From an uncultured Phycisphaerales bacterium (lineage in GTDB: Bacteria > Planctomycetota > Phycisphaerae > Tepidisphaerales > Tepidisphaeraceae), in assembly GCA_963844715.1 (NCBI GenBank), contig CAWJPJ010000006.1, forward strand, positions 1,192,907-1,256,906: 64,000 nucleotides of DNA, read 5' to 3'. The position numbers and the translations under genes were made by a program. Positions 43,295 to 62,487 of this stretch are shown here, piece after piece. How positions within the stretch are numbered: position 1 is the stretch's first letter; every line of letters begins with the position of its first letter. The notes beneath the pieces are model-generated. The model was not told the origin of the DNA and made no database searches. It saw nothing but the letters and a program-made list of their open reading frames with translations.

Positions 43295-43855
43295 ATGGCC
43301 AACGCGACGGAAGACCTTCGCCTGCGCGAGCGGATCAGACGGATCGATACGCTGTTGCAGGAAATCGACAAGTTCCCCGACCCGCAGGCGAAGGGGCGCA
43401 TGAGGGAAATCGTTCAGTGCGTCATGGACATGCACGGCGCCGTTTTGGAACGGATTTTCGATCAGGTCGCCGAAAGCCCCGAATCCGGAACCACGCTGAT
43501 CGATTCCCTGGCCAAGGATGACCTCATCGCGAGTTTGCTGATTTTGTACGGCTTGCATCCGCTCGATATCGAGACGCGCGTCGCCGAGGCGCTGGAAAAA
43601 GTCCGGCCGTATCTGCACTCCCACGGTGGAAACGTCGAATTGCTCGGCCTCGACGACGGCGTTGTGCGGCTGCGGCTCCAAGGAAGCTGCCACGGATGCC
43701 CCTCTTCGGCGATGACCCTCAAGAGCACCATCGAAGAGGCTATCATGGAAAAGGCGCCGGATGTGGCGGGCATTGACGTGGAGGGCCAAACCACTGAATC
43801 GGTCGCCGGCGAGGCGGAACACAAGGGCCTGGCGCTGCCGGTGATTTCCGGGTGA
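43295..43855 (+). CDS. NifU-like Fe-S protein (HhyE-like)
   Basis: Own RBS AAGGAG before ATG; LYGLHP...VRPYLHSHGGNVEL...GSCHGCPSS. Confidence 0.88.
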   Translation: MANATEDLRLRERIRRIDTLLQEIDKFPDPQAKGRMREIVQCVMDMHGAVLERIFDQVAESPESGTTLIDSLAKDDLIASLLILYGLHPLDIETRVAEALEKVRPYLHSHGGNVELLGLDDGVVRLRLQGSCHGCPSSAMTLKSTIEEAIMEKAPDVAGIDVEGQTTESVAGEAEHKGLALPVISG

Positions 43856-43862
43856 GGCGCGT

Positions 43863-44499
43863 ATGTCAATCACCGACACATCATCGCAACAACCGCTGCC
43901 AGGCCTGCGTGGCTTTGTGCGGCCGCGCAAAAATGTGGAAACCTGCGAGCTGTGCGGGGCCGCCCTTGAACGGCCGGCACCAGCACTTGCTGGAAGTGAA
44001 TGCCCGTCGCCTGGTGTGCAGTTGCGATGCGTGCGCGATTTTGTTCAGCGGACGCGGCGTGCGATATCGCCGGGTGCCGCGACGGATCGAATGCCTCGAG
44101 GATTTTCGCATCACCGATGAGCAATGGGAGGGGCTGCATCTGCCGATCAATCTCGCCTTCTTTTATTTCAGCACGCCGGCGGGAAAAGTCGTCGCGATGT
44201 TTCCCAGCCCGGCCGGGGCAACCGAATCGCTTTTGACTTTGCAAACCTGGGACGAGCTGGTCGAGGCCAATCCGGTGCTCAAGGAATTGGAGCCGGATGT
44301 CGAGGCCCTGCTCGTCAATCGAGTCGGAAAAGCCCGGGATTATTGCCGGGCCCCGATCGATGAATGTTACAAACTGGTCGGGCTGATCCGAACCTATTGG
44401 CGCGGACTGTCGGGCGGCAATGAAGTATGGGAACAACTCGCCGCTTTCTTCGCGGAGGTGAGAAATAAATCCGGCTCCAAGGGAGGACCCAATGCCTGA
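43863..44499 (+). CDS. DUF5947-like hydrogenase accessory protein (frameshift ~43965)
   Basis: CELCG, H-x-H, CSCDAC, FPSPAGATES, PIDECYKLVG. Confidence 0.8.
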
Positions 44500-45139
44500 T
44501 CTCTCGTTCGACATTTTAGGGGCTGAACCCGTGCAATTCGCGGCTTCGCCCATGATCCATTTCGCCCTCAAGGTCAAAGATGCGGAACTCGGCAAAATTC
44601 ACGCCGTCGCGCTGCGATGCCAGATTCGCATCGAACCCGCGCAGCGGAGATACGACGCGGGGGAAAAAGCTCGCCTCCGCGATCTCTTTGGCGAGCCGTC
44701 CCGATGGGGACAAACCATGCGCACGATGCTCTGGGCCCATACCACGGCGGTCGTTCCCCCCTTTGAAGGGACCACGACGGTTCAACTTCCGGTCGCCTGC
44801 ACCTATGATTTCAATATCGCCGCGGCGAAATACTTTTATGGATTGGATGAGGGTGAAGTCCCGCTCTGCTTCCTGTTCAGTGGAACAATCTTCTTTTCCA
44901 GCGAAGACGGAAACATGCAAATTTCCCAAATTCCGTGGGAAAAGGAGGCAAATTTCAGGCTGCCCGTGAAGGTCTGGCGGGAAATGATGGCGTTTTATTA
45001 TCCGAACACCGCGTGGCTGCCGCTGCGCAAGGATGTCTTCGATCAGCTCTACGAATTCAAAACCCGCCATTCCCTCCCGACCTGGGAAGCGGCGATGGAG
45101 AAGCTGATCGGCTCACAAATTGAACAGGTGGAAACGTGA
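44492..45139 (+). CDS. DUF6084-like hydrogenase accessory protein
   Basis: LRCQIRIEP, LFGEPSRWG, CTYDF, LFSGT, YPNTAWL. Confidence 0.8.
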   Translation: MPDLSFDILGAEPVQFAASPMIHFALKVKDAELGKIHAVALRCQIRIEPAQRRYDAGEKARLRDLFGEPSRWGQTMRTMLWAHTTAVVPPFEGTTTVQLPVACTYDFNIAAAKYFYGLDEGEVPLCFLFSGTIFFSSEDGNMQISQIPWEKEANFRLPVKVWREMMAFYYPNTAWLPLRKDVFDQLYEFKTRHSLPTWEAAMEKLIGSQIEQVET

Positions 45140-46197
45140 ATCGCGGCTTCGTCGACAGAATCACCCGCGCTCTGCTTTACGAGGGATACGTTCTTTATCC
45201 GTACCGCAAGTCCGTGAAAAACTCCCATCGCTGGACGTTCGGCGGCATTTACCCCCAGGCATGGAGCAAAGCGCAAACCGGCGCCGATGCCTGGATGATG
45301 CAGACCGAATGCCTGATCCACGGCACCGGCCGAACGCGCCTGCGGACGATCGTGCGGTTTTTGCAATTGGTCAATCGCCAGGTGGGAGAAATCGATCCTC
45401 CGCTGGACGAACTCCCCGCCGAGGGCGAGCCCGAATATCGAACCACGCCCTCCCTGCGCATCGGCGAAAAGTTATATCAAAGCTGGCAGGAAGCCGAGGA
45501 ACGAGAAGTCGATTTTGGGATGGTTCAGATCGCCGATCTGGTCCGCCAGTCCTATCGAACCTTCGTTCAATATCCGCTTCGGCGAACGATCGAGCCTCTG
45601 CGCGAAGAGTTCGGCAAGATCGCCGGACTATTGATCCGCGACCAGCGCGCCATTGAAGGCACGATCGAGATTTTCGCGGCGCCGGTCGCCGATGATCTAT
45701 TCAGGCTCACCGTCCGGATCACAAATCAAACCGAATTGCCCGATGCGCAAGACCGGAACGAGGCGCTCCTGCGATCGTTTGTATCCACGCACACGATATT
45801 GGGAGCCGAGGAAGGAGAGTTCGTCTCCCAAACCGATCCCCTGGCAATATGGAAAACCCAATCCGCCGACTGCCGCAACCTGGGGGCTTGGCCGGTGCTG
45901 GTCGGCGAAGAAGGAACTCGCGACACGGTCTTGTCTTCCCCGATCATTTTAAGCGACTACCCGCAGCTCGCCCCCGAGAGCCCCGGCGATTTGTTCGACT
46001 CAACCGAGATCGACGAGATTCTGACCCTGCGCATTCTGACGCTGACGGACGAAGAAAAACGCGCCGCCGCCGGCATGGACGAACGCGTCCGCCATCTGCT
46101 GGAACGAACCGAAGCGCTGGCCCGCGATCAACTGATGAATCTGCACGGAACGATTCGCGGACTAAAGCCCGTGGCCCAGGAGCAATCCAATGGATGA
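45136..46197 (+). CDS. Conserved group 1h cluster protein
   Basis: LYEGYVLYPYR, MQTECL, WPVLVG, SPIILSDYP, ESPGDLFDSTEIDEILTLR. Confidence 0.75.
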   Translation: MNRGFVDRITRALLYEGYVLYPYRKSVKNSHRWTFGGIYPQAWSKAQTGADAWMMQTECLIHGTGRTRLRTIVRFLQLVNRQVGEIDPPLDELPAEGEPEYRTTPSLRIGEKLYQSWQEAEEREVDFGMVQIADLVRQSYRTFVQYPLRRTIEPLREEFGKIAGLLIRDQRAIEGTIEIFAAPVADDLFRLTVRITNQTELPDAQDRNEALLRSFVSTHTILGAEEGEFVSQTDPLAIWKTQSADCRNLGAWPVLVGEEGTRDTVLSSPIILSDYPQLAPESPGDLFDSTEIDEILTLRILTLTDEEKRAAAGMDERVRHLLERTEALARDQLMNLHGTIRGLKPVAQEQSNG

Positions 46198-46516
46198 ATT
46201 CCCCTCATTTCCCGGCGATCTCCACACCGAGCGGAAACTCGACCGCGTCTTCGCGGACGGCGTCGAAATCAAACCCGGCGATCAGGTCGTCCTGCGACCC
46301 GTCGCCCGCGCCGATATTTTCGATCTCGCCCTTGAGGGCAAAGTCGCCACCGTTGTTTCCATTGAACAAGACTATGAAGACCGCATCCATCTGGCCGTCA
46401 CCGTCGACCAGGACCCGGGCTGGGAACTCGGTTGCGACGGCATGATCGGCCATCGCTTTTTCTTCGGCGTGGACGAAGTCGTCCCCGCCGCCAGGCACAA
46501 TGATCCACGCATTTGA
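46190..46516 (+). CDS. Conserved small group 1h cluster protein
   Basis: GDQVVLRP..RADIFD, AVTVDQDPG, HRFFFGVDEV. Confidence 0.7.
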   Translation: MDEFPSFPGDLHTERKLDRVFADGVEIKPGDQVVLRPVARADIFDLALEGKVATVVSIEQDYEDRIHLAVTVDQDPGWELGCDGMIGHRFFFGVDEVVPAARHNDPRI

Positions 46517-46532
46517 TTGGAGGTCCTTTATC

Positions 46533-46768
46533 ATGAAATCCGAGCACGAATTATCCGACGACGGCGAAACGCGTGACGTCCTCTTTTTAGCCGGCGGCGC
46601 CGCCCTGATTCTCCTGGGCACGGATTGATGATGGCGCATCCCGTCCTTCGGCGTAATGCCAAGGCTGCCCTGGCAACGTTCATGCCCGACCTGGAAGGAC
46701 CCGTCAAGGCCGGCATCAAGGGGGTTATTCCCGACCTCGAGCGCTATCTCAAGCTGAAAGCGATGTAG
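46533..46768 (+). CDS. Small membrane protein (frameshift ~46620)
   Basis: RBS GGAGG; MKSEHE...LFLAGGAALILLG...PDLERYLKLKAM*. Confidence 0.6.
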
Positions 46769-46773
46769 ATCGG

Positions 46774-47343
46774 ATGTCCCCATCGACATTGGCTACCCGT
46801 TACCTCCTCGATACATCCCGAAGCCGGTTCACCGTTCAGGCTTTCGCCTCCGGACTCCTCGCTGGCTTCGGGCACAATCCGATCTTCGTCGTCCGCGACT
46901 TTGCCGGCGAGTTGATCTTTTCCCCCGACCAACCCGGCGATTGTTCCTATTCCATGACGGTCCAGTCCCCATCCTTGCAACTCAGCGACGGCCTGACCGA
47001 GCACGAACGCCAGGAAATCCAGCGCATCGCCATGGATGAAGTTCTCGAAGTCGCCAAATATCCCGACATCGCCTTCCGCAGCACCAAAATCCTCGCGACC
47101 AACATTACGCCCGGCTGGTTCCGCGCCCAAATCAAAGGCCTGCTCCGATTGCACGGAATCATCCGCCACTTGCCCATCGACGCCCAACTCCGATTTGCCG
47201 ATCGCACCATGCAACTAAGCGGCGATTTCACGATCAATTTCCGCGACTTCAACATCAAAGCCGTCGCCGGCACCGCGGGTTTGATCAAGGTAAAGGATGA
47301 ACTCAAATTCCAGTTCAACCTCCTGGGCCAGGAAAAAAGATGA
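46774..47343 (+). CDS. YceI-like protein 1 (no signal peptide)
   Basis: YLLDTSRSRF, LEVAKYPDIAFRS, GLLRLHG, VKDELKFQF. Confidence 0.85.
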   Translation: MSPSTLATRYLLDTSRSRFTVQAFASGLLAGFGHNPIFVVRDFAGELIFSPDQPGDCSYSMTVQSPSLQLSDGLTEHERQEIQRIAMDEVLEVAKYPDIAFRSTKILATNITPGWFRAQIKGLLRLHGIIRHLPIDAQLRFADRTMQLSGDFTINFRDFNIKAVAGTAGLIKVKDELKFQFNLLGQEKR

Positions 47344-47933
47344 GCGGTCCGCCGGCAAATCCCCTTTCCACCAGCGCAACGCGCTACGTCCTGGACGTAC
47401 CGAACAGCCGCTTCACCGTCCAGGCGTTCGCCGCCGGTTTCCTGGCGGCCTTCGCCCACAGCCCCACATTCGCCGTTCGCGATTTTTCCGGCGAATTTCG
47501 ATTTTCCCCCGACGGCGCCGGCCAATCTTCTTTTGAAATGACCGTGCAAGCCCAATCGCTCCAATTGACCGACGATGTGAAGGAAAGCGATCGGCAAGAG
47601 ATTCAAAAGACCGCTCTCGACGATGTCCTCGAGGTCGGCAAGTTTCCCCAGATCTCCTTTCGCAGCGCCCAAATCGTAATCACCAAAATCACCGAAGCCT
47701 GGTATCGCGCCGAAATCCGCGGCGACATGCGCCTGCACGGAGCGACCAGGCCGCTGTCCATCGATACCCAGGTGCGCCTCGCCGAACGCGCCATGAGAGT
47801 CAGCGGCGAATTCACCATCAAGTTCCCCGATTACCAAATTAAACGCGTCACCGGTCTGGCCGGCCTCATCAAGATCAAGGATGAGCTGAAATTCTCTTTC
47901 GATCTATCCGGCCGCCAGGAGCCAGAGGCTTAA
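47340..47933 (+). CDS. YceI-like protein 2 (tandem paralog)
   Basis: YVLDVPNSRF, LEVGKFPQISFRS, GDMRLHG, IKDELKFSF. Confidence 0.85.
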   Translation: MSGPPANPLSTSATRYVLDVPNSRFTVQAFAAGFLAAFAHSPTFAVRDFSGEFRFSPDGAGQSSFEMTVQAQSLQLTDDVKESDRQEIQKTALDDVLEVGKFPQISFRSAQIVITKITEAWYRAEIRGDMRLHGATRPLSIDTQVRLAERAMRVSGEFTIKFPDYQIKRVTGLAGLIKIKDELKFSFDLSGRQEPEA

Positions 47934-47936
47934 ATC

Positions 47937-48482
47937 ATGTCCCCTCCCCGCATTCTCATCGCCGGCATCGGCAACATTTTCCTCGGCGACGACGCCTTCG
48001 GTGTAGAAGTCGCGCAAAAACTCGCCAAACGTAAGATGCCCGAGGGCGTATGCGTCACTGACTTCGGAATCCGCGGCCTCGATCTGGCATACTCGTTGCT
48101 TGATGAACATGCCATGGTCGTCCTCATCGATGCAGTCTCACGCGGCAATGCGCCCGGCACGCTTTATCTCATCGAGCCCGACATTTCGTCGCTTCAGTCC
48201 GGCGATCAGCCCCTCACTCTCGACGCCCACGGCATGCATCCCGAAAAAGTCCTGCGCCATGCCGCCTCGATGGGCGCCAAGTTCGGCCGTGTCCTCCTGG
48301 TCGGATGCGAGCCCACCCCATTCAATCCCGACCTGGACATGCAGATGGACTTGAGCGAGCCCGTCCGCGCCGCCGTCGATGAGGCGGTCCAAATGGTCGA
48401 ATCACTCGTGTCAGATTTTTTGAACAATCGACATTTCGCCGGCGCCCCCAACGCAGGCGCGGCGAAGTCGAACTTTTCCTAA
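47937..48482 (+). CDS. Hydrogenase maturation endopeptidase
   Basis: ILIAGIGNIFLGDDAFG, DFGIRG, DAHGM, VGCEP. Confidence 0.92.
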   Translation: MSPPRILIAGIGNIFLGDDAFGVEVAQKLAKRKMPEGVCVTDFGIRGLDLAYSLLDEHAMVVLIDAVSRGNAPGTLYLIEPDISSLQSGDQPLTLDAHGMHPEKVLRHAASMGAKFGRVLLVGCEPTPFNPDLDMQMDLSEPVRAAVDEAVQMVESLVSDFLNNRHFAGAPNAGAAKSNFS

Positions 48483-49613: not shown

Positions 49614-50617
49614 ATGTCAACTCTCAATGCGTCAAAAAGTCCCACACTCGCCCCTCCTCTAGCCGACGAATCCCTCTATTGGGCCGCCGTGCGCCCGCGC
49701 AAAATTGTCATGCGCAAAATGCTCGCCGGCCTTTTCTGGCGAGCCCTCAATCCCATCCATCTCCTAAAAGCCGCGCACCTCCACTGCAATCGCAAGGCCA
49801 ACCGCCACGCCTTCGTCGACGCTCAACTCGCCCTCGTCACCAAAATTCTCCCCAGCGATTTTCTTCACTACGGCTACTTCGACGACCCCGACCTCATCCC
49901 CGAGGAAATGAAACTCGCCGACATCTCGCGCGCCCAGCTCCGCTACGCCGAACTCCTCATCGACCAGATGACCAACCCCAACGATCCTGTCCTCGACGTC
50001 GGCTGCGGCATGGGCGGAATCTCCCGCCTGCTCCACAAACGTGGCTTCACCCCCACCGCACTCACCCCCGACCGCGTCCAGGCCGCTCACATCGCCGCCA
50101 CGCACCCCGGCGTCCCCCTCGTTCGCTGCAAACTCGAGCGCCTCCCCGTCGCCGACCACGCCCAAAATATGGCACCGTCCTCACCTCCGAATCCTTACAA
50201 TATTTGCGGCTCGACAAATCCCTCCCCATCATCGACGCCATCCTAAAACCCGGCGGCCGCTGGATCGCCGCCGATTATTTCCAGCGCCACGCCAGCGACG
50301 ACAACACCTGCCACAACTGGGAAGAATTTCAAACCCTCCTCCCCCGCCACGGCTGGCGAATCGCCCACCAACGCGACATCTCCAAAAACGTCCTCCCCAT
50401 GCTCGCCTACGTGAACATGTGGTCCAACCGAGCCTTCCGCCCCGCGGCACACATGACCCAACTCCGCCTCCAACGCAAACAACCCGGCCTGCATTATCTA
50501 CTCGAAGGCGTCATTACCTATCTGAACGATTTCCTGGACAATAACCTGGACCGCGTAGACCCGGCTTGGTTCCTACGACACAGGCTGTATATGATGTTAG
50601 TCATAGAACGCGCCTGA
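49614..50617 (+). CDS. Class I SAM-dependent methyltransferase (frameshift ~50165)
   Basis: LHYGYF, VLDVGCGMGG, SESLQY, LKPGGRWIAADYF. Confidence 0.85.
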
Positions 50618-50891: not shown

Positions 50892-52034
50892 ATGAGTAAT
50901 CCGTCGCGGCGGGAACGCACCCAACTTCGGCGACTAATCGAAGATTCATTGCGGCGACAGGGCTTTAAGGTCCGAGACGACCAAATCGTCGTTTCAAAAA
51001 GAGCGGGCAAGCGCAAACTCCGTAGCCTACACCACCTTTCCGTGCAACACCGCGTCGACGATGCGCGGTGCCGGCTCGGGCGCTATGAAAGCGACCTGAT
51101 TCAGCGCATCGCGTCGGGGTCTGAGGTGCAACCAGATCGGATATCCCCGAGACTCGTAGAAGTACTCCCGGAATCGGAGAACGAACTTCTTTTTCGTTTT
51201 GCCAGCCTGCATTGGAGCATTCCCACGTCATCCGGTTATGGTCGAAGACTACGCTTCCTTGTCGAAGACGCGAGCAATGGAAAATTGATAGGGCTTTTCG
51301 GCCTTTGCGATCCAGTCTTCAGTGTCGCAGCGCGCGATGCGTGGGTCGGTTGGGATTTACAGACGCGCAAAGCGCGATTACGCAACGTGATGGAGGCCTT
51401 TATTCTGGGGGCGGTCCCGCCGTATTCGATGCTCCTTGCGGGGAAGCTTATCGCCATGCTGTGTTGCAGCGAGGAAGTGCGACAGGCGTTTCGCCGCAAA
51501 TACAGCCGTGGTGAATCTCTGATCGCGAATGGCGCCGCGGACGGCCGATTAGCGATGCTCGCCACGACCTCTGCACTCGGCCGCTCATCCGTATACAACC
51601 GCGTTAGGTTCGGTGAACGGCTTTTGATGGTTCCCGTGGGATACACCAGCGGGTGGGGTGAGTTCCAGTTCACCGACGGAGCTTACTCGCGGCTGCGCGA
51701 ATACGCCGAGGATTACTGTGATAAAACAGCGAAGCACAAATCATGGGGCACGGGTTTTCGCAATCGACGCGAGGTCGTCCGCCGCGTTCTGGCACATGTT
51801 GGGCTTTCGACGCAGTTGATGAACCACGGAATCCGCCGCCAATTGTTCGTGATGCCGCTTGCGAAGAACACCCGAGAGTTTCTGCGAGGCGATCAAACAC
51901 GTCTGCACTGGTATTGCCAATCGGCCGAGGACCTGTCAGCGTATTTCTTGCAGCGATGGCTACTTCCTCGCGCGGCCCGAAATGCGGAATATTTAAATTA
52001 CTCTAATGAGTCGTTTCGGCTGTGGCCGGAATGA
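50892..52034 (+). CDS. DUF4338 / Druantia DruA-like protein
   Basis: WSIPTSSGYGRRLRFLV, GLCDPVF..RDAWVGW, LGAVPPYSMLLAGKLIA, TTSALGRSSVYNR, GYTSGWG. Confidence 0.8.
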   Translation: MSNPSRRERTQLRRLIEDSLRRQGFKVRDDQIVVSKRAGKRKLRSLHHLSVQHRVDDARCRLGRYESDLIQRIASGSEVQPDRISPRLVEVLPESENELLFRFASLHWSIPTSSGYGRRLRFLVEDASNGKLIGLFGLCDPVFSVAARDAWVGWDLQTRKARLRNVMEAFILGAVPPYSMLLAGKLIAMLCCSEEVRQAFRRKYSRGESLIANGAADGRLAMLATTSALGRSSVYNRVRFGERLLMVPVGYTSGWGEFQFTDGAYSRLREYAEDYCDKTAKHKSWGTGFRNRREVVRRVLAHVGLSTQLMNHGIRRQLFVMPLAKNTREFLRGDQTRLHWYCQSAEDLSAYFLQRWLLPRAARNAEYLNYSNESFRLWPE

Positions 52035-52049
52035 CATGAAAGTTACGCC

Positions 52050-53164
52050 TTGGAAGCATTTGCCGATCTCCCCGATGCGCTGGTACAAGACCTTTTGGCG
52101 AAGGCTATGCCGGTAGCGGAGGGAGTTAACCGGAATCTCCGATTACTTAAAGAGGCGAAAGCCCCCTTACGTGCCGAGGCTGAGCGGCGCGGCTGGATAA
52201 GGCGAAAAGCCGACCTCGACGTTCCGCGTGAGCCATCTGTAGTCGGAATCGACGGCTCGTATCAGGTCCACCGCCTCACCGCACTCGACTTGTGCGCGGC
52301 CGCGTCGGTCGCGGTCGAAGGAACCTCGAAGGAGGTCGCCATTGGGAGAAGCCGCACCATCGAATGTGGGTCGAATGCCTCGAACACAGCAAGAACGTAA
52401 CCAATACGCTACGCGGCCTAATGATTTCGATGGAACTCGACGTGGCCGCAAAATCACCACACGACCTGGTTCTTTTGGACGGCTCGTTCATTATTCTCCT
52501 TATCTACCTCAATCAAGGGCTAACGAGCGAGATGGAAGCTCCAAAGGTACTCCGAGATGAATTCCGAAGCCGGTGGCATGAGGAGAATGTGCTCGATCGA
52601 TTTGTGACGCTGCTGGGCAGCGATCGCACCGTCGCAGTTCCCAAGTATTCCGGCCGAAATGAGTTGTCCGGTCTGCTCCAACGCAATCTGCCGGAGACCG
52701 ACGGCAAGACGTTGGCGACCCTGATTCTTATGCCCGGCGAGTACACGGCACCGATGGAAATTTATCACTTTGGAAGCGAAGATCAGGAGTACCACTTACC
52801 AAGGGGCAGTTGTCCGGAGGCGACTCAGACAATCATTAATCAGCAGCTCGCGGACATGCGCGTTGTATTTTTCCGGCCGTTCGGCTGGGCGCCCGCCGTG
52901 CGCCTGGAACTCCCGAAACCAATCGCCACGTCACTGCCGCGCTTATCTCTGGCGCTGCATGGTATTGAGAGACAGTTCTTCAGCCCTGCCGTAATTGAGC
53001 CTTACCCGTTGTTTCTCGCGGATCGAATGGTCAAGAGTTTGGGCGCTGGTGTGTCGGTGATAGAACAAACCGTCGCCCAGCATGTCGCCGGCGAATCCGT
53101 CGACGTTGAGACGACATTATTGTGTCTTCAAAACTACCGCACGGAAGGCGGGCGTGGAGGCTAG
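52050..53164 (+). CDS. NurA-domain nuclease (frameshift ~52335; start uncertain)
   Basis: VVGIDGS, LVLLDGS, VAVPKY, EPYPLFLADRMVK. Confidence 0.78.
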
Positions 53165-53170
53165 TCATCT

Positions 53171-54470
53171 ATGAGTGGGGAACACGATAAAGACGTTGCT
53201 GTAATTGGCAGTCCGTCAAGCAATACCGAGTTGACTCTCGATTTGTTACTGGAAGCGACCGAGGAGCGGATAGTCGGTGTCGCTTACTGCGTTTCGCGCT
53301 AGTCAGAACGGGACACCCATCGTCTCCGTGGGTCAGGTCGTGGGAATCGAACTTCGAAACCGGTGGCACGAAGATTCTGTTTTTCGGAATCTCGTAAAGC
53401 GAACGGGAGAAATACCACCCATCACAAATCGACAGGATACGCGGATCGCCGACCTCGTCGTCGGGGCAACATTCCGTAAGGAAAGCGGGGGCTACGCGCC
53501 GGAAGTTCTCGGGATGGTCCCGCCCACCGGCACCCGCGTCTTTCGGGTAGATCAACCCCTGTTGGATAGCATGCTGTCAGCGTACCAGCAGGAGATTGTT
53601 TATTTGGGGCGGGCATACGCGAACGACATACTCTATCCGATGTGGTTCAAGCACTTTGGCAGCGGACCGGGGGGCGCGGGTGAAGCGTACCATATCGGCG
53701 TCTTCGGAAAGACCGGTTCAGGAAAGTCCGGCTTGGCCAAAATGATGCTTTGCGCGTATGCGCAACACCCTCAGATGGGGGTTCTCATTATCGATCCTCA
53801 GGGTGAGTTCTCGGACGAACTTCGCGGCCAGCGCCGTGGACACCAGGGTCTTGCCGTAGATCAAGTGGTCTTGGCAATGGGCCGCAAGATACAGCACTAC
53901 CGCATCGTCGACTTGCAACTCGATACTTGGGACTTGTTCCAAGACCTAATAAGCGCGCGACGCTTTGTCCAAGACCGCCTCGACGTTCGAGGAGCCGAGA
54001 ATGTGCCCTTAGCCGCGGAATATATGCGCGAGGGTCTTGAACGCTCGGGTACTAAGCTGACTGAATTGGGGAGCGAAGAGGCTTTCCGCACGGCACTGAA
54101 TAGCGTAAAAGAGCGAGCGAATAGGATCTACACGGGGGCGGCACGCGCGGCGCAACTGCAGGAACGTGTCGATTCCATTCTTGGAGCGGAATTTGAGATG
54201 ACGTTCCGTGACGGTTGGTCGCCCATAGCCAATTTATTTCGGGCAGGGCAAGGGCGCAGGACGCTGTATGGAATCGTTGGGGATTTGATTCAAAGCGAAG
54301 GATCAGGCGCCGCCCGTCCCGTAGTTGTGATTGATATATCTGAGGAAGGAAATCCCAACCTTTGGGCCGAGGAAATTGAGCTCAGGGTTATGGCGAGACT
54401 GCTGAATGTCCTCGTTGTTCAAGCAGCACACCGATCAAGGCGATTCGAACCAGGGACCAAGGGTTTATGA
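53171..54470 (+). CDS. HerA/FtsK-family ATPase, C-terminally truncated (frameshift ~53280)
   Basis: HAS-barrel-like N-terminus (VIGSPSSN, GQVVGIELRN); HIGVFGKTGSGKS; IIDPQGEF; no DEAH Walker B before the tRNA fragment. Confidence 0.8.
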
Positions 54471-54478
54471 GACCCCTG
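54442..54478 (-). mobile_element. tRNA(CAU) fragment (anticodon arm to T-loop); putative att-site remnant
   Basis: Minus strand CA-GGGGT-CTCATAA-ACCCT-TGGTC-CCTGG-TTCGAAT-C; no D-arm or acceptor stem. Confidence 0.78.
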
Positions 54479-54673
54479 AACGCTATTCACAACAATATGG
54501 AGAAACAACAACTTGCACGGAGCCCCGGAGATTGCTTGTCACCTGACTTGTCACTGATTCTGCGAAAACACCCCGAACTGGCTGGATTCATTCAGGCATG
54601 GCCGAAATTGTCTGAGGTGGTCCGAGTGGGCATTTTGGCAATGGTGAACGCGTCGAAGGTCGGATGTTCATAG
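54467..54673 (+). CDS. Small protein at the element junction
   Basis: PELAGFIQAWPKLSEVVRVGILAMV; similar short ORFs recalled beside att sites in planctomycetes (unverified). Confidence 0.4.
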   Translation: MRPLNAIHNNMEKQQLARSPGDCLSPDLSLILRKHPELAGFIQAWPKLSEVVRVGILAMVNASKVGCS

Positions 54674-54755
54674 CCGGCCGCCGGAAATGCAGAAGATTCA
54701 CCTGGAGACAATTTTGTCGGGTCGGGGCTACGTGTTGACATTTCGCAAGGCAAAA

Positions 54756-54992
54756 TTACTTGCCGTCGCCGGGAAACAATCGGAGATGCCGTCCGGGATT
54801 TCGTGAGCAGGCTGAATCTTGGGACGGCGTCGAGCGGGCGGCGCACTTTCCATGCAGCGGACAACCTCGCGCACAGCAGGAGCCCAATCGACTCTTGCGG
54901 CCAAAGAACACGCCGATGCCTTGCCAGGCGACATAAACAGCGCACGCCAAGATGGCGAATGCCACGAGCAGGTTTTGCAGCCAAATCGGCAT
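54756..54992 (-). CDS. FeoB-associated Cys-rich small membrane protein
   Basis: MPIWLQNLLVAFAILACAVYV...GSCCARGCP, directly after feoB; end uncertain. Confidence 0.55.
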   Translation of the reverse strand: MPIWLQNLLVAFAILACAVYVAWQGIGVFFGRKSRLGSCCARGCPLHGKCAARSTPSQDSACSRNPGRHLRLFPGDGK

Positions 54993-54999
54993 GTGAACC

Positions 55000-56987
55000 T
55001 TAAGCAATGCACTGGCTCATTTGGAAAATGAACAAGCAAACGACATACGCCAGCGCATTCATGTAAATCAGCATAAAGATTGGCCAGCCCCAGCCGCCGG
55101 TTTCCCGGCGAACCACGGCCAACGTGCTCATGCACTGCATCGCCAGCACAAACCAGACGAGCAGGCTGATTGCCACGGGGGCCTTCCACACCTTTCGTCC
55201 ATCGGGATAGCGGTCGGCGAGCATCGCCTCGGACAAATCGGCCCCGTGGCCGTCTTCTACGTCGCCGGTGCTGTAGACGATTCCCATCGTTGAAACAAAG
55301 ACCTCGCGGGCCGCGAAGGCGCTGACCAGGCCGACTCCCATCTTCCAGTCATAGCCCAGCGGCCTGATCGCCGGCTCAATCAAATGCCCAAATCGGCCGG
55401 CGAGCGAGTGATTCATTCGTTCGGCAGCGACGACGTTGGCCGAAGCGCCGGACGCTTCAAGGTGACGCAGATACTTTTGCGATACGCCGTAATAGGTCAG
55501 GGCCCAGAGCAGGACGCTCATGCAGAAGATCACGGTGCCGGCCTTGGTGAGAAATTCGGAGGTGTTCACCCAGACCTGCCGGGCAATCTCCGAGCCCTGC
55601 GGCAGCTTATAACTCGGGCAGTTCCATAATAAACGCATCGGTGGAGCCCTTCAGCAGCGTTCGCCGAAAGATCCACGCTGTCCCGGCGGCGGCGAAGATG
55701 CCCGCCGCATACACGGCCAGCATGATTCCCGCCTGAACCGCTGGTCCGCGGGCGGCAAAAAATGTCGCGATCAGAAGCGTGTAGACGGGCAGGCGAGCCT
55801 GCAACCCATGAAGGGCGCGATCAGGATCGTCGCCAGGCGATCTTTGCGGTTCTCGATTGTGCGCGTCGCCATGATGCCTGGAATAGCGCAGGCGAAACTG
55901 CTCAGCAGCGGTATGAACGATTTGCCGTGCAGTCCGACTCGCCTGAGTAATCGATCCATCAGAAATGCCGCGCGCGCGAGGTATCCGCTGTCCTCCAGGA
56001 TCGCCAGGAAGATGAACAGGAGCGCCGATCTGCGGCACGAAGGCGACCACCGCCCCAACACCCGCGAAGATGCCGTCGGTCGACAGATCGCGCATAGGGC
56101 CTTTGGGCAAATGTGCGGCGACCAGCCCGCCCGTCCATTGCACGCCGTCCTGGATCCACTGCATGATGGGCTGCGCCAGCCAGAAGATCGTCATGAATAA
56201 TAGACTCATCACGGCGGCGAAGATCAAAAGGCCCCATATCTTGTGAATCAAGATTGCATCGACACGTTCGGAGAGACTTCGCGAAGAGGTGACGCCTTGC
56301 GAAGGACCATCGCCGCGAGATCGAGCGGTGACTTGCTCGATCCAATCGTAACGCGATTCGATATCGGCCCGCATCGGGTCGCTATTGGCGTGGCGCTGAT
56401 GCTGCGAAGCGCGCAAGCCAATCGGGCACCACCGGTTTCCTGGCATGAACGATCGCTTCTTTAAGTTCGGCGATGCCGCGGCGCTTGTGCCCGATGATGG
56501 AGACCACGCCGATGCCGAGTTCCTGTTGAAGTTTCGCTGGGGATACTTCCATGCCGCGCCGCCGCGCGACGTCGATCATGTTCAGCGCTAGCACCACAGG
56601 CTTGCCCAATTCAATGACCTGGCTCAGCAGATAAAGGTTTCGTTGAAGATTGCTTGCATCGACGACAACGACAATAGCGTCCGGTGACGGCGTCTCCGCC
56701 CGTAGGCCGCGCAGAACCTCCATGGTTACGCGCTCGTCCGGCGATTGGCTCACCAGGCTGTACGTCCCCGGTAAATCGATGATGTCGATCAAACGCCCGT
56801 CGAGCAATCGGCAACGCCCGCTCTTCTTGTCGACGGTCACGCCCGGATAGTTCGCCACTTTCTGGCGCAGCCCGGTCAGGGCATTAAAAATCGTCGTCTT
56901 GCCGGAATTGGGATTGCCCGCCAGCGCCACTGTCATGGATGCCGTTCGGACGGAGCGAACAGGAGGTTGTTTGCAACAAGCTGGCAT
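55000..56987 (-). CDS. feoB: Ferrous iron transporter B (several frameshifts)
   Basis: [55 protein letters not shown]. Confidence 0.93.
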
Positions 56988-57009
56988 GACGTGCGGGCGT
57001 CGGTGTCCT

Positions 57010-57270
57010 TCAGGCCATCGTGATGCGAATGTGGCGGGCCTGTTCGTCGCGGAGCGATACGCAATACCCTCGGAGGCGAAATTCGATGGGATCTCCCAAG
57101 GGCGCCCGCCGCAGCATTTCCACGCAGGTGCCGTTGCAAAATCCCATTTCCAGCAGCCGGCGGCGCACATTGGTTTCTCCGCCGACCCATGCCACGCGGC
57201 CTCGGCCGCCGACGGCGAGTTGGTTCAGCCAGCAGGTGTCGCGGAAAACACATTGGGTGCAATCTGCCAT
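57010..57270 (-). CDS. feoA: Ferrous iron transport protein A
   Basis: RRRLLEMGF, RRAPLGDPIE, VSLR. Confidence 0.9.
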   Translation of the reverse strand: MADCTQCVFRDTCWLNQLAVGGRGRVAWVGGETNVRRRLLEMGFCNGTCVEMLRRAPLGDPIEFRLRGYCVSLRDEQARHIRITMA

Positions 57271-57649
57271 ATCGTCTGCTTTTCGGACGCCGGATTTCAA
57301 CACGAGTCCTCCGATTCAGAGTCATTTCCGATCGTTTCGATACTCTAGAATTTTCGTTGGGACGGAAAATCGCGGTATCGCCCGCGAACTTGCGTAGGGG
57401 AATTTGCTTACAAATGACCTGGCGGTGGGGCCGGCCGGGGACCCCGACGGGTGGCAAGACGACCCGGAATTGAAAGGAGAAAAGCGTCTTCCGATGCGAG
57501 ATCGGAAGACGCCTTTTCGTTCTTAGGTCGGGCGCGATGTTTTCGCTAGTCGGCGGCGAGGTGATGGACGGTGGAGCAGCCGACCTGAACGGCGAAGGCG
57601 GTGTCGTTGCAGTTGACTTGGCCGGCTTGTCCACCGCGGGAGCCTGCCT

Positions 57650-58183
57650 GGGCCTGAGCCACCTGAGCCAATGGAGCGGATCGGCGCGGAGATGCGCGGC
57701 GCCGGCGCGATCCGATTTTGGGGGGACGGCAATGTGAACCATCAGCGGTTTGACCAGGCGGGCGTAGTCTGAAAATCTCATGCAGACCACGTCGGTGTGA
57801 GTGCCGGCGTTGAAGACCAGAAAATCCTGGATGCGCCATGCCGATGTCGACGAAGGTTCGCAGGCCGAAGAGATTTCCGAACGGGGGTACGGCTCCGGGC
57901 TGGCAGGTCGTAAAGAAACGGGCGAATTCGGCTTCCTGTGCCAGTCGAACATGGGCAGCGCCGGTTTCGCGCGCAGCGCGTCCAAGTCCAGTTCCTTGCT
58001 GGCGGGCACGACGGCCAGGGCCAGATCATTATTGATCCAAACGATCACTGTTTTCGCCATATAGCGGCCGGGGATGTGGGCTGAATGAGCCACTTCCTGC
58101 GACGTGTAGGCCAGGGCGTGATTGTTCAGGGAGTGGGGAACGCCTTTTTCGGTTAGAAATTGACAGACTCGTTGGATGGACAT
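57650..58183 (-). CDS. YbaK/EbsC aminoacyl-tRNA deacylase (frameshifted; end approximate)
   Basis: HALAYTSQEVA, MAKTVI, LAVVPAS, FNAGTHTD. Confidence 0.8.
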
Positions 58184-58425
58184 AACGCCTCGTTGTTAAG
58201 TTACACTAACATTATCGACATTCCCCGGCGGCCAGACCATCGGGGGGTTCACCGTTTGTATGCTTAGGTGAACCCCCTACGTCCGGGCGACACACGTAGG
58301 CATCTGGCGGCAATTGGGCCTACAGGTAAGAGTAAGCCGCGGAGCGAGGAAATGGCATTGAAGCTGCCCGCGGCAGGGCCGAGGGCGGATACATGATTTA
58401 CGATGCAAGGCCCTGACGGCCGAAT

Positions 58426-59521
58426 TCATCGGTTGAGCGACGGCTTATCATTCGAAAGGGGAGAGGCAAAGCTTTCAGCCACGGCCACCTCCAATTTGCT
58501 GTACCCTAGCAGATGATAAGCAGCGGTGGAGAAAATCCAACTACAGGCGAAAATCCCAATGATCGTGACACCCACCCAGACAAAGTCCAGGGCATTAATG
58601 CGATCCCAAAATGGCCCCTGAAGATTGAATTGACCGCCCACCAGTGAAAGCACCTCGATGCCGCCCACCATGATAGCAATAAACACGGAGACGGCCGTTA
58701 TTGTCATGTTGTAATAGAGCTTCCGCACCGGATGAACAAACGCCCATCCATACGCTCCCAGCATGAGGACGCCGTCGGCCGTATCGACTACGCACATGCC
58801 GGCCGTAAACAGCAAAGGGAAAAGGAGGATCGACCAGATGGGCACCCCCTGTGTGCCGGCGGCGGCGGCGATCCCCAGCAATCCGACCTGCGTTGCCGTG
58901 TCGAATCCAAGTCCAAATAGAAAACCAACAAAATACATCTTCCAACTGGCGTCCACCAGGCGGATGATGGGCCGGACCATTCGGCCGATCGCGCCCATAC
59001 CAGAAAGCATCCCATCGAGTTGCTGATTGACGTAAGGCTCGCCGCGCTTGACCCGCCTGAAAGTTTGCGTGACGCCACGGAGCACCAGCAGGTTGATCAG
59101 TGCGATGCCAAACAGGAAGAGCGCAGAAACGGCCGTTCCCACCACATTGCCTATGCGCTCCAGTCCGTCGAAGCGGGATTGGATGCGCGCGGCCGTCATG
59201 GCGATGGCCAGGGAAAGCAGAATCACGATGGTCGAATGCCCGACGGAAAAGAAGAAGCCAACCAGCATGGGGCGTTTCCGCTCCTGCATAAGCTTTCGGG
59301 TGACGTTATCGATGGCCGAAATATGATCCGCATCCAGCGCATGGGCCAGACCAAGCGAGAAAGCCTCGGCCCCAAACCCCAGCAGCAGCGGGTAATGGTG
59401 AAAGGACAACACGCGCCGCGGCCCAGATGATGAGGTTGATCCCCGCCACCAACAGCCCCATCCAAATGAGCCGGCGATAAAAATGTTTGTCGGTAGTAAA
59501 TTGGGGATGTGAAGTTCTCAT
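58426..59521 (-). CDS. NiCoT (HoxN/NixA) nickel/cobalt permease (frameshift ~59415)
   Basis: HALDADHISAIDNVTRK, FSVGHSTIV, GLGFDTATQ, YYNMTIT. Confidence 0.92.
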
Positions 59522-60227
59522 ACGACTAAATCCTTGTTCGTGCTTATCAACGCCGGTTTTCCATGCTTATCTTCCTTGGCCGCCCGGCGATGGTCCTGGA
59601 GCCAATTCAGCCAAGCGTTCAAACCGTCGCCGGTGATTGCCGAGAGTTCAATCACCGGTACGTCGGGATTCAGCCGCGCGATGTCGTCACGGAAAATCTG
59701 GCGGTTGAACGGAACGTGCGAAATCAGATCGATCTTGTTGAGCAAGCAAGGACGATTCGCAGACGATGTAGGGATGCTTGGCCGCTTTATCGTCGCCGCC
59801 GGCGGTGCAGAACATGCCGACTTTGGCGTCCTGGCCGAGATCGAAACCGACGGGGCAGATCAGATTGCCGACGTTTTCGATGAAGAGCAGATCCAGCGAC
59901 TCGACATCGATGCGATCCATGGCCTGCATGACGTGATGGGCTTCGAGATGGCAGCCTTTGCCGGTGTTGACCTGGACGACGCGATCGGTGAAGCGGGCGA
60001 TGCGGTCGGCGTCGCGCTGGGTGGTGAGATCGCCGACGATGACGCCGACACGCAAGCGTGCGGGCGAGACGCTAAGGGTGGCTTCGATGAGGGCGGTCTT
60101 GCCGCAGCCGGGCGCGCCCATCAAATCGATCGTGAAAACGCCGGCTCTGCGCAGACGGCGTGCGATTCATGCGCGGCCAATCTCGTCGTTGAGCTTCAGA
60201 ACGTTTTGGACAACTTGCGACTTGCAT
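59518..60227 (-). CDS. hypB: Nickel-insertion GTPase HypB (frameshifts)
   Basis: GAPGCGKT, TGKGCHL, ENVGNLICP, NKIDL. Confidence 0.92.
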
Positions 60228-60580
60228 GATCGGCTCCTCTCTGCTTCGTCGTCTCCACTTCGATGGAAACCAGTTGCAATTCGTCGCCGCCGACGGGGCG
60301 GACCTGGGTTCGAACCGCAATCGCAGCGCTCGGCCAATTCCGATGCTTGCCACTGATGGCCGCAGGCGCGCGCATTGCAGACGCCAGGGAAGAAGGTTTA
60401 GTTTCAGGTTAGCGGCGTTGGCTTGGCCGAGGCCTTGCCAGGCCATTCCATGGACTCGGCGTCGATGCCGCGCATGGGGCCGGCGTGAATGCGCACGGCC
60501 TCGCAGCGTTGCGCCCTGCGGGCACGTATGCGGCTGCGCCAGATTCCAGAATCGCCTCGGCTAGTCGAGAATTCATGCAT
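60224..60580 (-). CDS. hypA: Nickel metallochaperone HypA (frameshifts)
   Basis: Start MHEFS; LPWRLQC; GGDELQLVSIEV; located between the protease and hypB. Confidence 0.75.
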
Positions 60581-61073
60581 GGCCGTCGCTCCCGGCGTAT
60601 CAGACGGCCTCGTTGACGGTATCGATCACGTCGATGACCAATGCGCGGAATGCGCCGTGCGGACCGGTTCGGACAGGCCGTGCCGGAAGAGAAATCCGCA
60701 CCGCCGATGTTGAAGAGGATGGCCTGTGGCGCGTGGCCGTAGAGCTGCTCGGCCAGACCAGAGAATGCTCGGGGCGACTGATGGTGGCCGATGGTGCTGG
60801 CCGCCGTTCCTGGCAGTCGATGGCGACGCTTTTGCTTGCGGACCTGGCCGGGCGGAGTTGCGCGTCGGCGTCGATGAAGATGGCAAGCTGCGACCGGCTG
60901 AAGGCTCGGCCAGTTCAGGCAGAAGCTGATGCACGGCCAGCACAGCGGCAGATTGCCGGGGCAGTCGATCGCGCAACGCCTTGGCGGCGGCCAGGCCGGC
61001 GCCGTCGTCGCGGCGAAGCACGTTGCCGTAGCCGATCACCAGGACCGGCGCTGTCAGTTGCGTCGGATTTCAT
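60573..61073 (-). CDS. hoxW: Hydrogenase maturation protease, HoxW-like (frameshifts)
   Basis: [25 protein letters not shown]; downstream of hoxH. Confidence 0.75.
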
Positions 61074-62487
61074 GGACCACCTCGCCGGTTGGGTTCACCA
61101 ATTCGATATGGAGCGGCATCTGCCGATGGCGTGGGTGGCGCAGGAGAGGCATGGGTCGTAACAGCGGATGACCGCCTCGACGCGGTTGAGCGCGCCTTCG
61201 GAAATCTTGTCGCCGTGGACGAACTGTTGGGCGGCCTGGAGGATTCCGCGGTTCATGGCCAGATTGTTATGCCCGTGGCGATGATGAGGTTGGCCCAGAC
61301 CATCAGGCCGTTGTCGTCGATGCGGTAATGATGGATGAGCGTGCCGCGCGGGGCTTCGGCGACGCCGACGCCTTCGCTCTGATTGGGCCTGGCGCGGGCG
61401 CGGACCTTGGTGTCGAGGATGTTGGGGTCATTCAGGAGTTGGCTCCATCGTTTCGACGCCGAAGATGATTTCGATGAGCCGGGCATGGTGATAATGGAAG
61501 CGAGCTGAGGACGGCGCCGCGCTGGATGTCGCGGAACTCGGCCCATTCCTGGTCGGCGATAGGCGTTCCGCAGTGATCGATGATATTGAGCCGCGCCAGC
61601 GGGCCCGACTCGGTAGATTCCCTTGCGGGTAGCCCAGCTCGCTTGAAATAGGGGAATTTCATGAAGCTGTAAGGGCTCGACGGCTTCGGCGATCAGCTCC
61701 TGGTAGCGCTGCGGGGGAAACTTATCGACGACGACTCGCCCTGGGAATCGACGATGCGGAGATGGCCGTCGTAGTGTTCCAGGCCGCCGCTATCGGTGAC
61801 CAGTCCCATGAAGAGCGTAGGGAAGTTGGCGAAGGTTTGGGCTTCGGCGGCGAAGTTACCGGCAGATTTGCTTGTACCAGTTGAGAGCGTGCGGCGGCCG
61901 ATCTCCAGGGCTTCGGGCAGCATGGCCAGCATTTTGTCGCGATCCGCGGCAGCGAGCGGTTTGTTGACGCCGCCGGGAACGGCCCAGGCGGGATGGATGC
62001 GTTTCCCGCCGAGGATTTCGATGACGGTCTGGCCGATTTGGCGAAGGCGGATGCCGTCGCGGGCCAACTGGGGATTTTCCTGGGCGACGCCGAAGAGATT
62101 GCGCTTGGCGGGATCGGCGTCAAAACCCATCAGCAGGTCGGGGGAGCAGAGATGGAAGAAACTGAGGGCGTGGGATTGGACCAGTCTGGGCCAGGTTCAT
62201 GAGCCGGCGAAGATTGGCGGCGGTTCGGGGATGTTGACGGCGAGCAAGTGCATCGCAGGCCTTGGCGGAGGCGGTCAGGTGGCTCACCGGGCAGATGCCG
62301 CAGGTGCGGGCCATCAGCGAGGGCATTTCCGTGAGCGGCCGGCCTTCACAGAATTTTTCAAAGCCGCGGAACTGCGTGACATGGAACATGGCGTCGGCCA
62401 CGTCGCCGTCGTCGTTCGAGCTTCAGCGTGATCTTGGCGTGGCCTTCAATGCGGGTCACTGGATCGATAACGATGTTCGCGTGCCAT
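61054..62487 (-). CDS. hoxH: Group 3d bidirectional [NiFe]-hydrogenase large subunit (many frameshifts)
   Basis: [53 protein letters not shown]. Confidence 0.9.

Follow-up and report, generated by a model that had tools for sequence, protein, structure and literature searches.

We analyzed a 64,000-nt stretch of contig CAWJPJ010000006.1 from an uncultured Phycisphaerales bacterium (hereafter, the window), which carries a cassette of three co-directional genes: druA, nurA, and herA. The first, druA (50892..52034, + strand), is intact and encodes a very basic 380-aa protein of the DUF4338/DruA family (Pfam DruA PF14236, E = 4e-107; PADLOC DruA1, E = 1e-112), which has a GNAT fold in its AlphaFold2 (AF2) model and is predicted to be an acyltransferase. 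After a 15-nt spacer (52035-52049), nurA starts with a TTG codon at 52050, as it does in L001, an intact homologous cassette that we used as the reference for lesions. In the window, nurA is split into a 5' piece (52050..52400, +), which contains the first DGS motif but drops out of the homologous frame near 52346 to end at a stop, and a 3' piece (52346..53164, +), which holds the second DGS motif and the PK and EPYP motifs and shares about 85% identity with the intact L001 NurA. This C-terminal piece matches Pfam NurA at E = 3e-4, and its intact L001 homolog does so at E = 1e-7, above the cut-off. Another 6 nt (53165-53170) separate nurA from a truncated herA (53171..54441, +), which begins with ATG and retains the N-terminal part, Walker A (GKTGSGKS), and a variable middle domain (PF01935, E = 1e-13); Walker B (LLDEAH), the RKYG motif, and the C-terminal ~160 aa are absent.

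A preliminary description of this DNA had seen a tight co-directional trio with gaps of about 15 and 6 nt, free of the C-ending codon bias of the host and unaccompanied by druB-E, including the helicase gene druE. The coordinates agree, and the three predicted domains were all recovered by Pfam search. Third-position C amounts to 0.30-0.32 in the trio (GC3 0.60-0.63) versus 0.35-0.65 (GC3 0.67-0.77) in seven flanking genes; an eighth, feoB, was excluded owing to a frame slip. None of druB-E was found within the window, and a search of the genome with the intact L001 proteins revealed no second copy of the cassette.

Of the window copy, only druA is still intact, orphaned by the inactivation of nurA and herA. 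Relative to L001, nurA has 4 nt fewer near 52346, causing a frameshift. This lesion recurs in short-read contigs of related samples (X1 to X6), which we compared with the window assembly; since contigs of X1 (52202-52432) and X3 (52259-52414) span 52346 without a gap, the frameshift is real. The cut in herA is real as well, because an X2 contig (54392-54480) bridges its junction with the adjoining sequence. On the other hand, herA has a +1 at 53280 relative to L001, and the absence of this extra base from X1 and X4 identifies it as an assembly error. The possibility that all lesions are long-read errors was therefore rejected, two being real and one not. Loss of the nurA start codon was also rejected: an 8-nt difference near 52040 falls within the spacer, leaving the TTG start untouched. 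Over druA, X1 contigs (51042-51748 and 51782-52073) show zero differences. The preliminary description had called the copy probably inactive because of the herA truncation alone; the nurA frameshift provides a second reason. In the surrounding regions (43852-48482 and 54728-62431) lie genes related to hydrogenases or metal uptake, among them those for a maturation protease and NicO as well as feoB; most were named by eye, and several are frameshifted. X1 reveals missing bases at 50163 and 50765, indicating that the assembly is indel-prone.

Homology to herA stops at 54441, about 14 codons short of Walker B, and the herA frame, fused across a tRNA-Met(CAT) fragment, stops at 54470. This fragment (54442..54478, - strand) is an exact 37-bp copy of positions 25-61 of the tRNA gene (blastn 37/37 to G000:C1:47420-47456), giving substance to the att-like junction noticed earlier. 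The source tRNA-Met gene (G000:C1:47408-47480) adjoins a tyrosine-integrase-like open reading frame (ORF). Next to the fragment lies an integrative-element end (54479..54673, +) with direct repeats CTTGTCAC at 54535 and 54547 and a 68-aa ORF that has relatives on C3 and C5; the repeats are also found beside the integrase-like ORF on C1, and a similar element end occurs in the relative G419. Beyond 54480, X1 and X2 carry another element end than the window, meaning that either strains differ at a tRNA-Met hotspot or the assembly is mis-joined here. Samples X5 and X6 cover the window version of the 54480-56000 region, but neither druA nor nurA; that X1-X3 cover nothing at 54491-55792 proves nothing by itself. 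Neither the remaining 3' part of herA nor the sequence that follows 54480 in X1 and X2 was found in the host assembly, which is 85% complete. A conserved T-loop-like attB inside herA was considered and rejected, as L001 and L081, the two homologs compared at the DNA level, show none. In another genome of the same genus (G401, L138:1193-5568), an intact tRNA-Met gene is followed by the same element-end remnant, two genes, one of them nucleosidase-like by eye, and feoB. An array of 24 tRNA genes lies outside the window, at G000:C6:952626-956065.

To place this broken copy among its relatives, we searched with NurA and inspected the neighboring genes, obtaining 96 loci: 1 viral, 15 from genomes, and 80 from metagenomes, these being the best 80 of 210 confirmed. 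Intact homologs of the window cassette include L001, L003, L017, and L028. The preliminary description had suggested looking for a conserved DUF4338, NurA, and HerA neighborhood in other genomes, and the trio indeed stays together, with druA upstream and herA downstream of nurA in 90 of the 96 loci (five lack enough flanking sequence on at least one side). Taken singly, herA lies directly downstream of nurA in 92 loci, the other 4 being too short, and druA lies upstream in 92, with 3 too short and one, L086, lacking it. Redundancy in this set is substantial: 62 complete cassettes reduce to 42 at 95% identity. Named hosts belong to five phyla (Planctomycetota, Verrucomicrobiota, Chloroflexota, Nitrospirota, and Thermodesulfobacteriota). 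Four loci have a 350-aa gene between druA and nurA (L012:8667-9716, L016:8666-9700, L048:313-1368, and L096:669-1700), for whose wider family no named family was found. In L046, a DruA of 31% identity and unlike amino acid composition (957-2045) occupies the usual slot ahead of a normal nurA-herA; it is possibly a replacement by a distant paralog. Its branch is long and could not be placed in the tree.

The distribution of the cassette is rare and patchy. Among 400 further genomes from the same phylum, NurA of this type was found in a single one, and it was not found among annotated phages. No match to the cassette DNA was detected in 40 related genomes (24 from the same family, and the unpublished G404 included), with seven candidates scored per genome. 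The L001 cassette sits inside a prophage-like element. Three plasmids, one each from Rhizobium, a haloarchaeon, and Euzebya, carry more distant nurA-herA pairs with 24-27% identity (L097:6998-10028, L098:6911-9730, and L099:6839-9951).

The trio might also be type I Druantia in a split or degenerate form, as the strong match of DruA to the PADLOC type I model could suggest, or its genes might be neighbors by chance. This explanation is very improbable and already largely refuted by the conservation of the trio, the lack of druB-E in the window, and the separate grouping of its DruAs. Namely, a quick 77-row tree placed 69 trio DruAs on one side of a branch with a Shimodaira-Hasegawa-like approximate likelihood ratio (SH-aLRT) of 95 and 6 Druantia-type DruAs on another (99); a repeat with 23 rows gave 96. 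By this sequence-based grouping, the trio DruAs lie outside the Druantia I DruA group. Furthermore, relatives with 35-43% identity to DruA are mostly found in operons of four or five genes that include a DEAD-box helicase of ~1,850 aa.

The genes around the cassette bear on its function. From the 80 metagenome loci, we took 144 dereplicated proteins encoded at most 3.5 kb away from the cassette and scanned them with PADLOC at E = 1e-8; 144 proteins, out of 191 from 16 stretches of the single genome G000, served as a control. Matches were obtained for 30 of the 144 flank proteins and 7 of the 144 controls (Fisher p = 7e-5), in agreement with the defense-island enrichment that had been proposed as a check. 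The best match was a type I, IIG, or III restriction-modification (RM) system or Hma for 10 flank proteins and no control (Fisher p = 0.002). Because the control comes from one genome, this enrichment is indicative only. Of the 23 dereplicated cassettes flanked by 3 kb or more, 14 have a defense neighbor, which is RM or Hma in nine, across about six distinct settings; the L006 cassette, for instance, lies near a SacI-type RM pair. No system in PADLOC v2.0 had all its components matched in a scan with the broken window copy, where the NurA pieces matched nothing and HerA matched weakly (best E = 9e-8, mad8), consistent with the earlier impression that the combination is not a named system.

Alternatively, the trio could be a module for DNA end processing or repair that travels with mobile elements, DruA being an accessory and defense playing no part. 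NurA-HerA is known in end resection (PMC12977600), and some copies do lie amid housekeeping genes or in the prophage-like element. Yet the very patchy distribution, the defense neighbors, the swapping of a HerA domain described below, and the decay in this genome all speak against such a module, and we regard it as improbable. Given the linkage, the PADLOC result, and the defense flanks, which support the original proposal of a DruA-like protein coupled to NurA-HerA in an undescribed defense module, we conclude that the druA-nurA-herA cassette is likely an uncataloged defense system, with a probability of roughly 0.8.

Both partners of DruA have conserved motifs in intact cassettes. Six NurA residues (D68, E130, D145, K200, E319, and D327), which we take to be catalytic, are invariant in 42 of 42 sequences and in distant relatives. 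NurA profiles matched nothing significantly in the PDB, the solved NurA 2ygk appearing at E = 0.21. The Walker A, Walker B, and RKYG blocks are conserved in 63 HerA homologs, and mean HerA identity is 86% in the N-terminal part, 84% in the C-terminal part, and 57% across residues 226-400. Between L001 and L017, identity is 99-100% through nurA and early herA, falls to 47-61% across ~600 bp, and then recovers; thus, the HerA middle was exchanged rather than drifted. The middle domain of the window HerA is 71% like that of L054 and 42% like that of L001. DruA and NurA trees conflict at 1 of 15 supported splits (rho = 0.71). As judged from these alignments and trees, swapping of the HerA middle domain among cassettes is independent of both DruA and NurA. 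Judging by position, this domain probably corresponds to the helical bundle that lies where DNA enters; in Thermococcus kodakarensis, HerA-NurA is reported to cut both strands, with DNA captured by the HB domain (PMC12977600).

What DruA contributes is less evident. Its AF2 model, built from 135 sequences, reached a predicted local distance difference test (pLDDT) score of 90.2 (an input of 12 sequences gave only 45.6). The top structural matches, from Foldseek and a wide search of 48,161 chains, are GNATs, and on this model we confidently describe DruA as a basic GNAT-fold protein; DUF4338 is likewise termed a GNAT in PMC10853773. The best of the 48,161 chains is phage Mu Mom (8bv8; Z = 9.1, root mean square deviation 3.6, 160 residues aligned), which ranked 25th in a BFVD structural search. 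The two proteins also resemble each other in charge, with a median isoelectric point of 9.96 and a net charge of +20 for DruA and 10.0 and +19 for Mom. The DruA profile matched no PDB sequence. Homologs are present in pelagiphages, cyanophages, and giant viruses (Faunusvirus, E = 5e-17), where they stand alone; a pelagiphage protein (L108:3677-4975), for example, is encoded beside 2-oxoglutarate (2OG)-Fe(II) oxygenases and MazG. DruA-like proteins of cyanophages are also reported in 10.1101/2025.08.05.668817. Mom itself is described as a GNAT acting on adenine N6 in SASNY (PMC13219725), and CAGCT is compatible with this motif, a weak observation. In type I Druantia, the host DNA is reported to carry a PacBio "m6A" signal at CAGCTGNC, although the system has no methylase domain (10.1101/2024.04.14.589459; 10.64898/2026.05.12.722862).

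DruA might instead be a reader that recognizes modified or foreign phage DNA and loads HerA-NurA onto it, so that the cassette would act as a type IV-like back-up to neighboring RM systems. This would suit the frequent adjacency to type I, IIG, and III and Hma systems, DNA binding by the basic GNAT surface would not require catalysis, and the DruA region aligned to the GNAT coenzyme A (CoA)-binding loop (YSxLLxGKL) differs from the textbook consensus. However, the many invariant residues in the DruA core suggest an enzyme, and the solitary viral homologs are as expected of a modifier; a reader thus seems doubtful.

We favor a scenario, to which we assign a little less than an even chance, in which DruA marks self and HerA-NurA destroys unmarked DNA. 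In this scenario, DruA would transfer an acyl or aminoacyl group onto a base of host double-stranded DNA (dsDNA), likely adenine N6, as Mom does. The HerA ring, in keeping with known HerA-NurA biochemistry, would capture dsDNA and pump it with ATP into the NurA dimer, where both strands would be degraded. Host DNA with the mark would be spared, and incoming unmarked DNA would be destroyed. In turn, phage DNA modifications or inhibitors may exert the pressure that drives exchange of the HerA middle domain among cassettes. That druA alone has survived intact, next to two inactivated genes, is as expected if it encodes a modifier that does no harm. A more specific version, in which DruA is a host-encoded Mom-like adenine acyltransferase, the cassette a compact RM system with an acyl self-mark instead of a methyl or sulfur one, and DruA the modifier of Druantia I as well, is put forward more tentatively.

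Several observations weigh against this reading. Regarding defense, 9 of the 23 dereplicated cassettes have no defense neighbor, the cassettes of L008, L009, L013, and L015 lie among mostly housekeeping genes, and the enrichment is weakened by non-independent loci together with the single-genome control. Regarding the link to druA, none was found within 7 kb of the three plasmid nurA-herA pairs, and L086 has nurA-herA without druA. Regarding the mark, Mom is tied with the protein acetyltransferase KKT23 (Z = 9.1), with more than 10 unrelated GNATs within 1 Z; the top Foldseek matches of DruA are malonyl-CoA decarboxylase and small-molecule acetyltransferases; and a DruA-Mom profile comparison detected no similarity (probability 0.1). 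According to the Mom paper, the GNAT fold does not predict the substrate (PMC13219725), and the Druantia I mark is not attributed to any one gene (10.1101/2024.04.14.589459). DruA and the HerA middle conflict at 14 of 15 supported splits (rho = 0.22), and such non-covariation, as far as the trees indicate, is unlike a sequence-specific writer-reader pair. Finally, TdpA from a modification-based system (8wet), which ranks first among PDB sequences matching HerA (E = 5e-6), aligns over the Walker regions only and is close to other HerA matches.

The cassette might also be a defense system in which DruA acylates protein or tRNA, either as an on or off switch for HerA-NurA upon infection or as a back-up toxic effector in abortive infection. 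The GNAT matches are mostly protein or small-molecule acetyltransferases, including TmcA and NAT10, and DruA has a common history with NurA, as noted above. A CARF-like gene fills the druA slot of L086 (1357-2460), as if the slot belonged to a regulator. DUF4338 fused to DndF has also been treated as a possible protein-targeting co-effector (PMC10853773). In contrast, an intact druA next to dead partners is unexpected of a partner-dependent toxin, unless it is silent; the strong basic charge of DruA suggests nucleic acid binding; and DNA is what Druantia I marks. Overall, we consider protein or tRNA acylation unlikely, albeit the most serious competitor of self-marking by DruA.

The cassette offers a 4-kb, three-gene model for the function of DruA, which matters because Druantia I marks host DNA without a known methylase. 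It also bears on the role of HerA-NurA in immunity versus repair, immunity having been suggested for an archaeal complex by a 2026 paper, and the swappable HerA domain would make specificity directly accessible to experiment. Should DruA prove to write a base modification, bacteria would be marking self by a new chemistry, and the related proteins of marine phages and giant viruses would become candidate DNA-modifying enzymes.

Five known systems resemble the cassette. Type I Druantia, composed of DruABCDE (PMC13316683), shares the DruA family (PF14236; PADLOC DruA1; 35-43% identity), but DruB-D and the DruE helicase are absent here, and DruA is partnered with NurA-HerA. The phage Mu Mom protein shares the GNAT fold and the basic charge with DruA and is its top, though tied, structural match; it differs in lacking detectable sequence similarity and in that DruA is 140 aa longer. 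Mom domains fused to restriction endonucleases are predicted modification-restriction pairs (PMC7824862). Archaeal and Deinococcus HerA-NurA likewise combine a NurA with invariant DGS motifs and an adjoining HerA ATPase, whereas the cassette is patchy, mobile, and tied to druA; neither mre11 nor rad50 was seen among its recurring neighbors. TdpABC, said to have been presented by An et al. in 2025 as a phosphorothioate RM system with a motor-nuclease role, is also a three-gene set of DNA modifier, HerA-type ATPase, and partner, and its TdpA is the weak HerA match noted above. Here, however, the third gene encodes a GNAT-fold DruA (PF14236) rather than a sulfur-incorporating TdpC, and no PDB chain named TdpB appeared among the NurA profile matches. 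Modification by tdpABC is reported to require one gene (PMC12914056; tdpABC is listed in PMC13223576). Sir2-HerA and DUF4297-HerA, finally, couple a HerA motor to an effector in defense, the effector here being NurA, with a GNAT as a third gene; the truncated window HerA scored 14.8 bits against the NCBIfam anti-phage HerA, whose cut-off is 800. The trio was not found as a described system in the literature searched, which did not extend to supplements and most subscription papers. All parts of the druA-nurA-herA cassette thus come from known families, and their combination is new relative to PADLOC and the literature searched.

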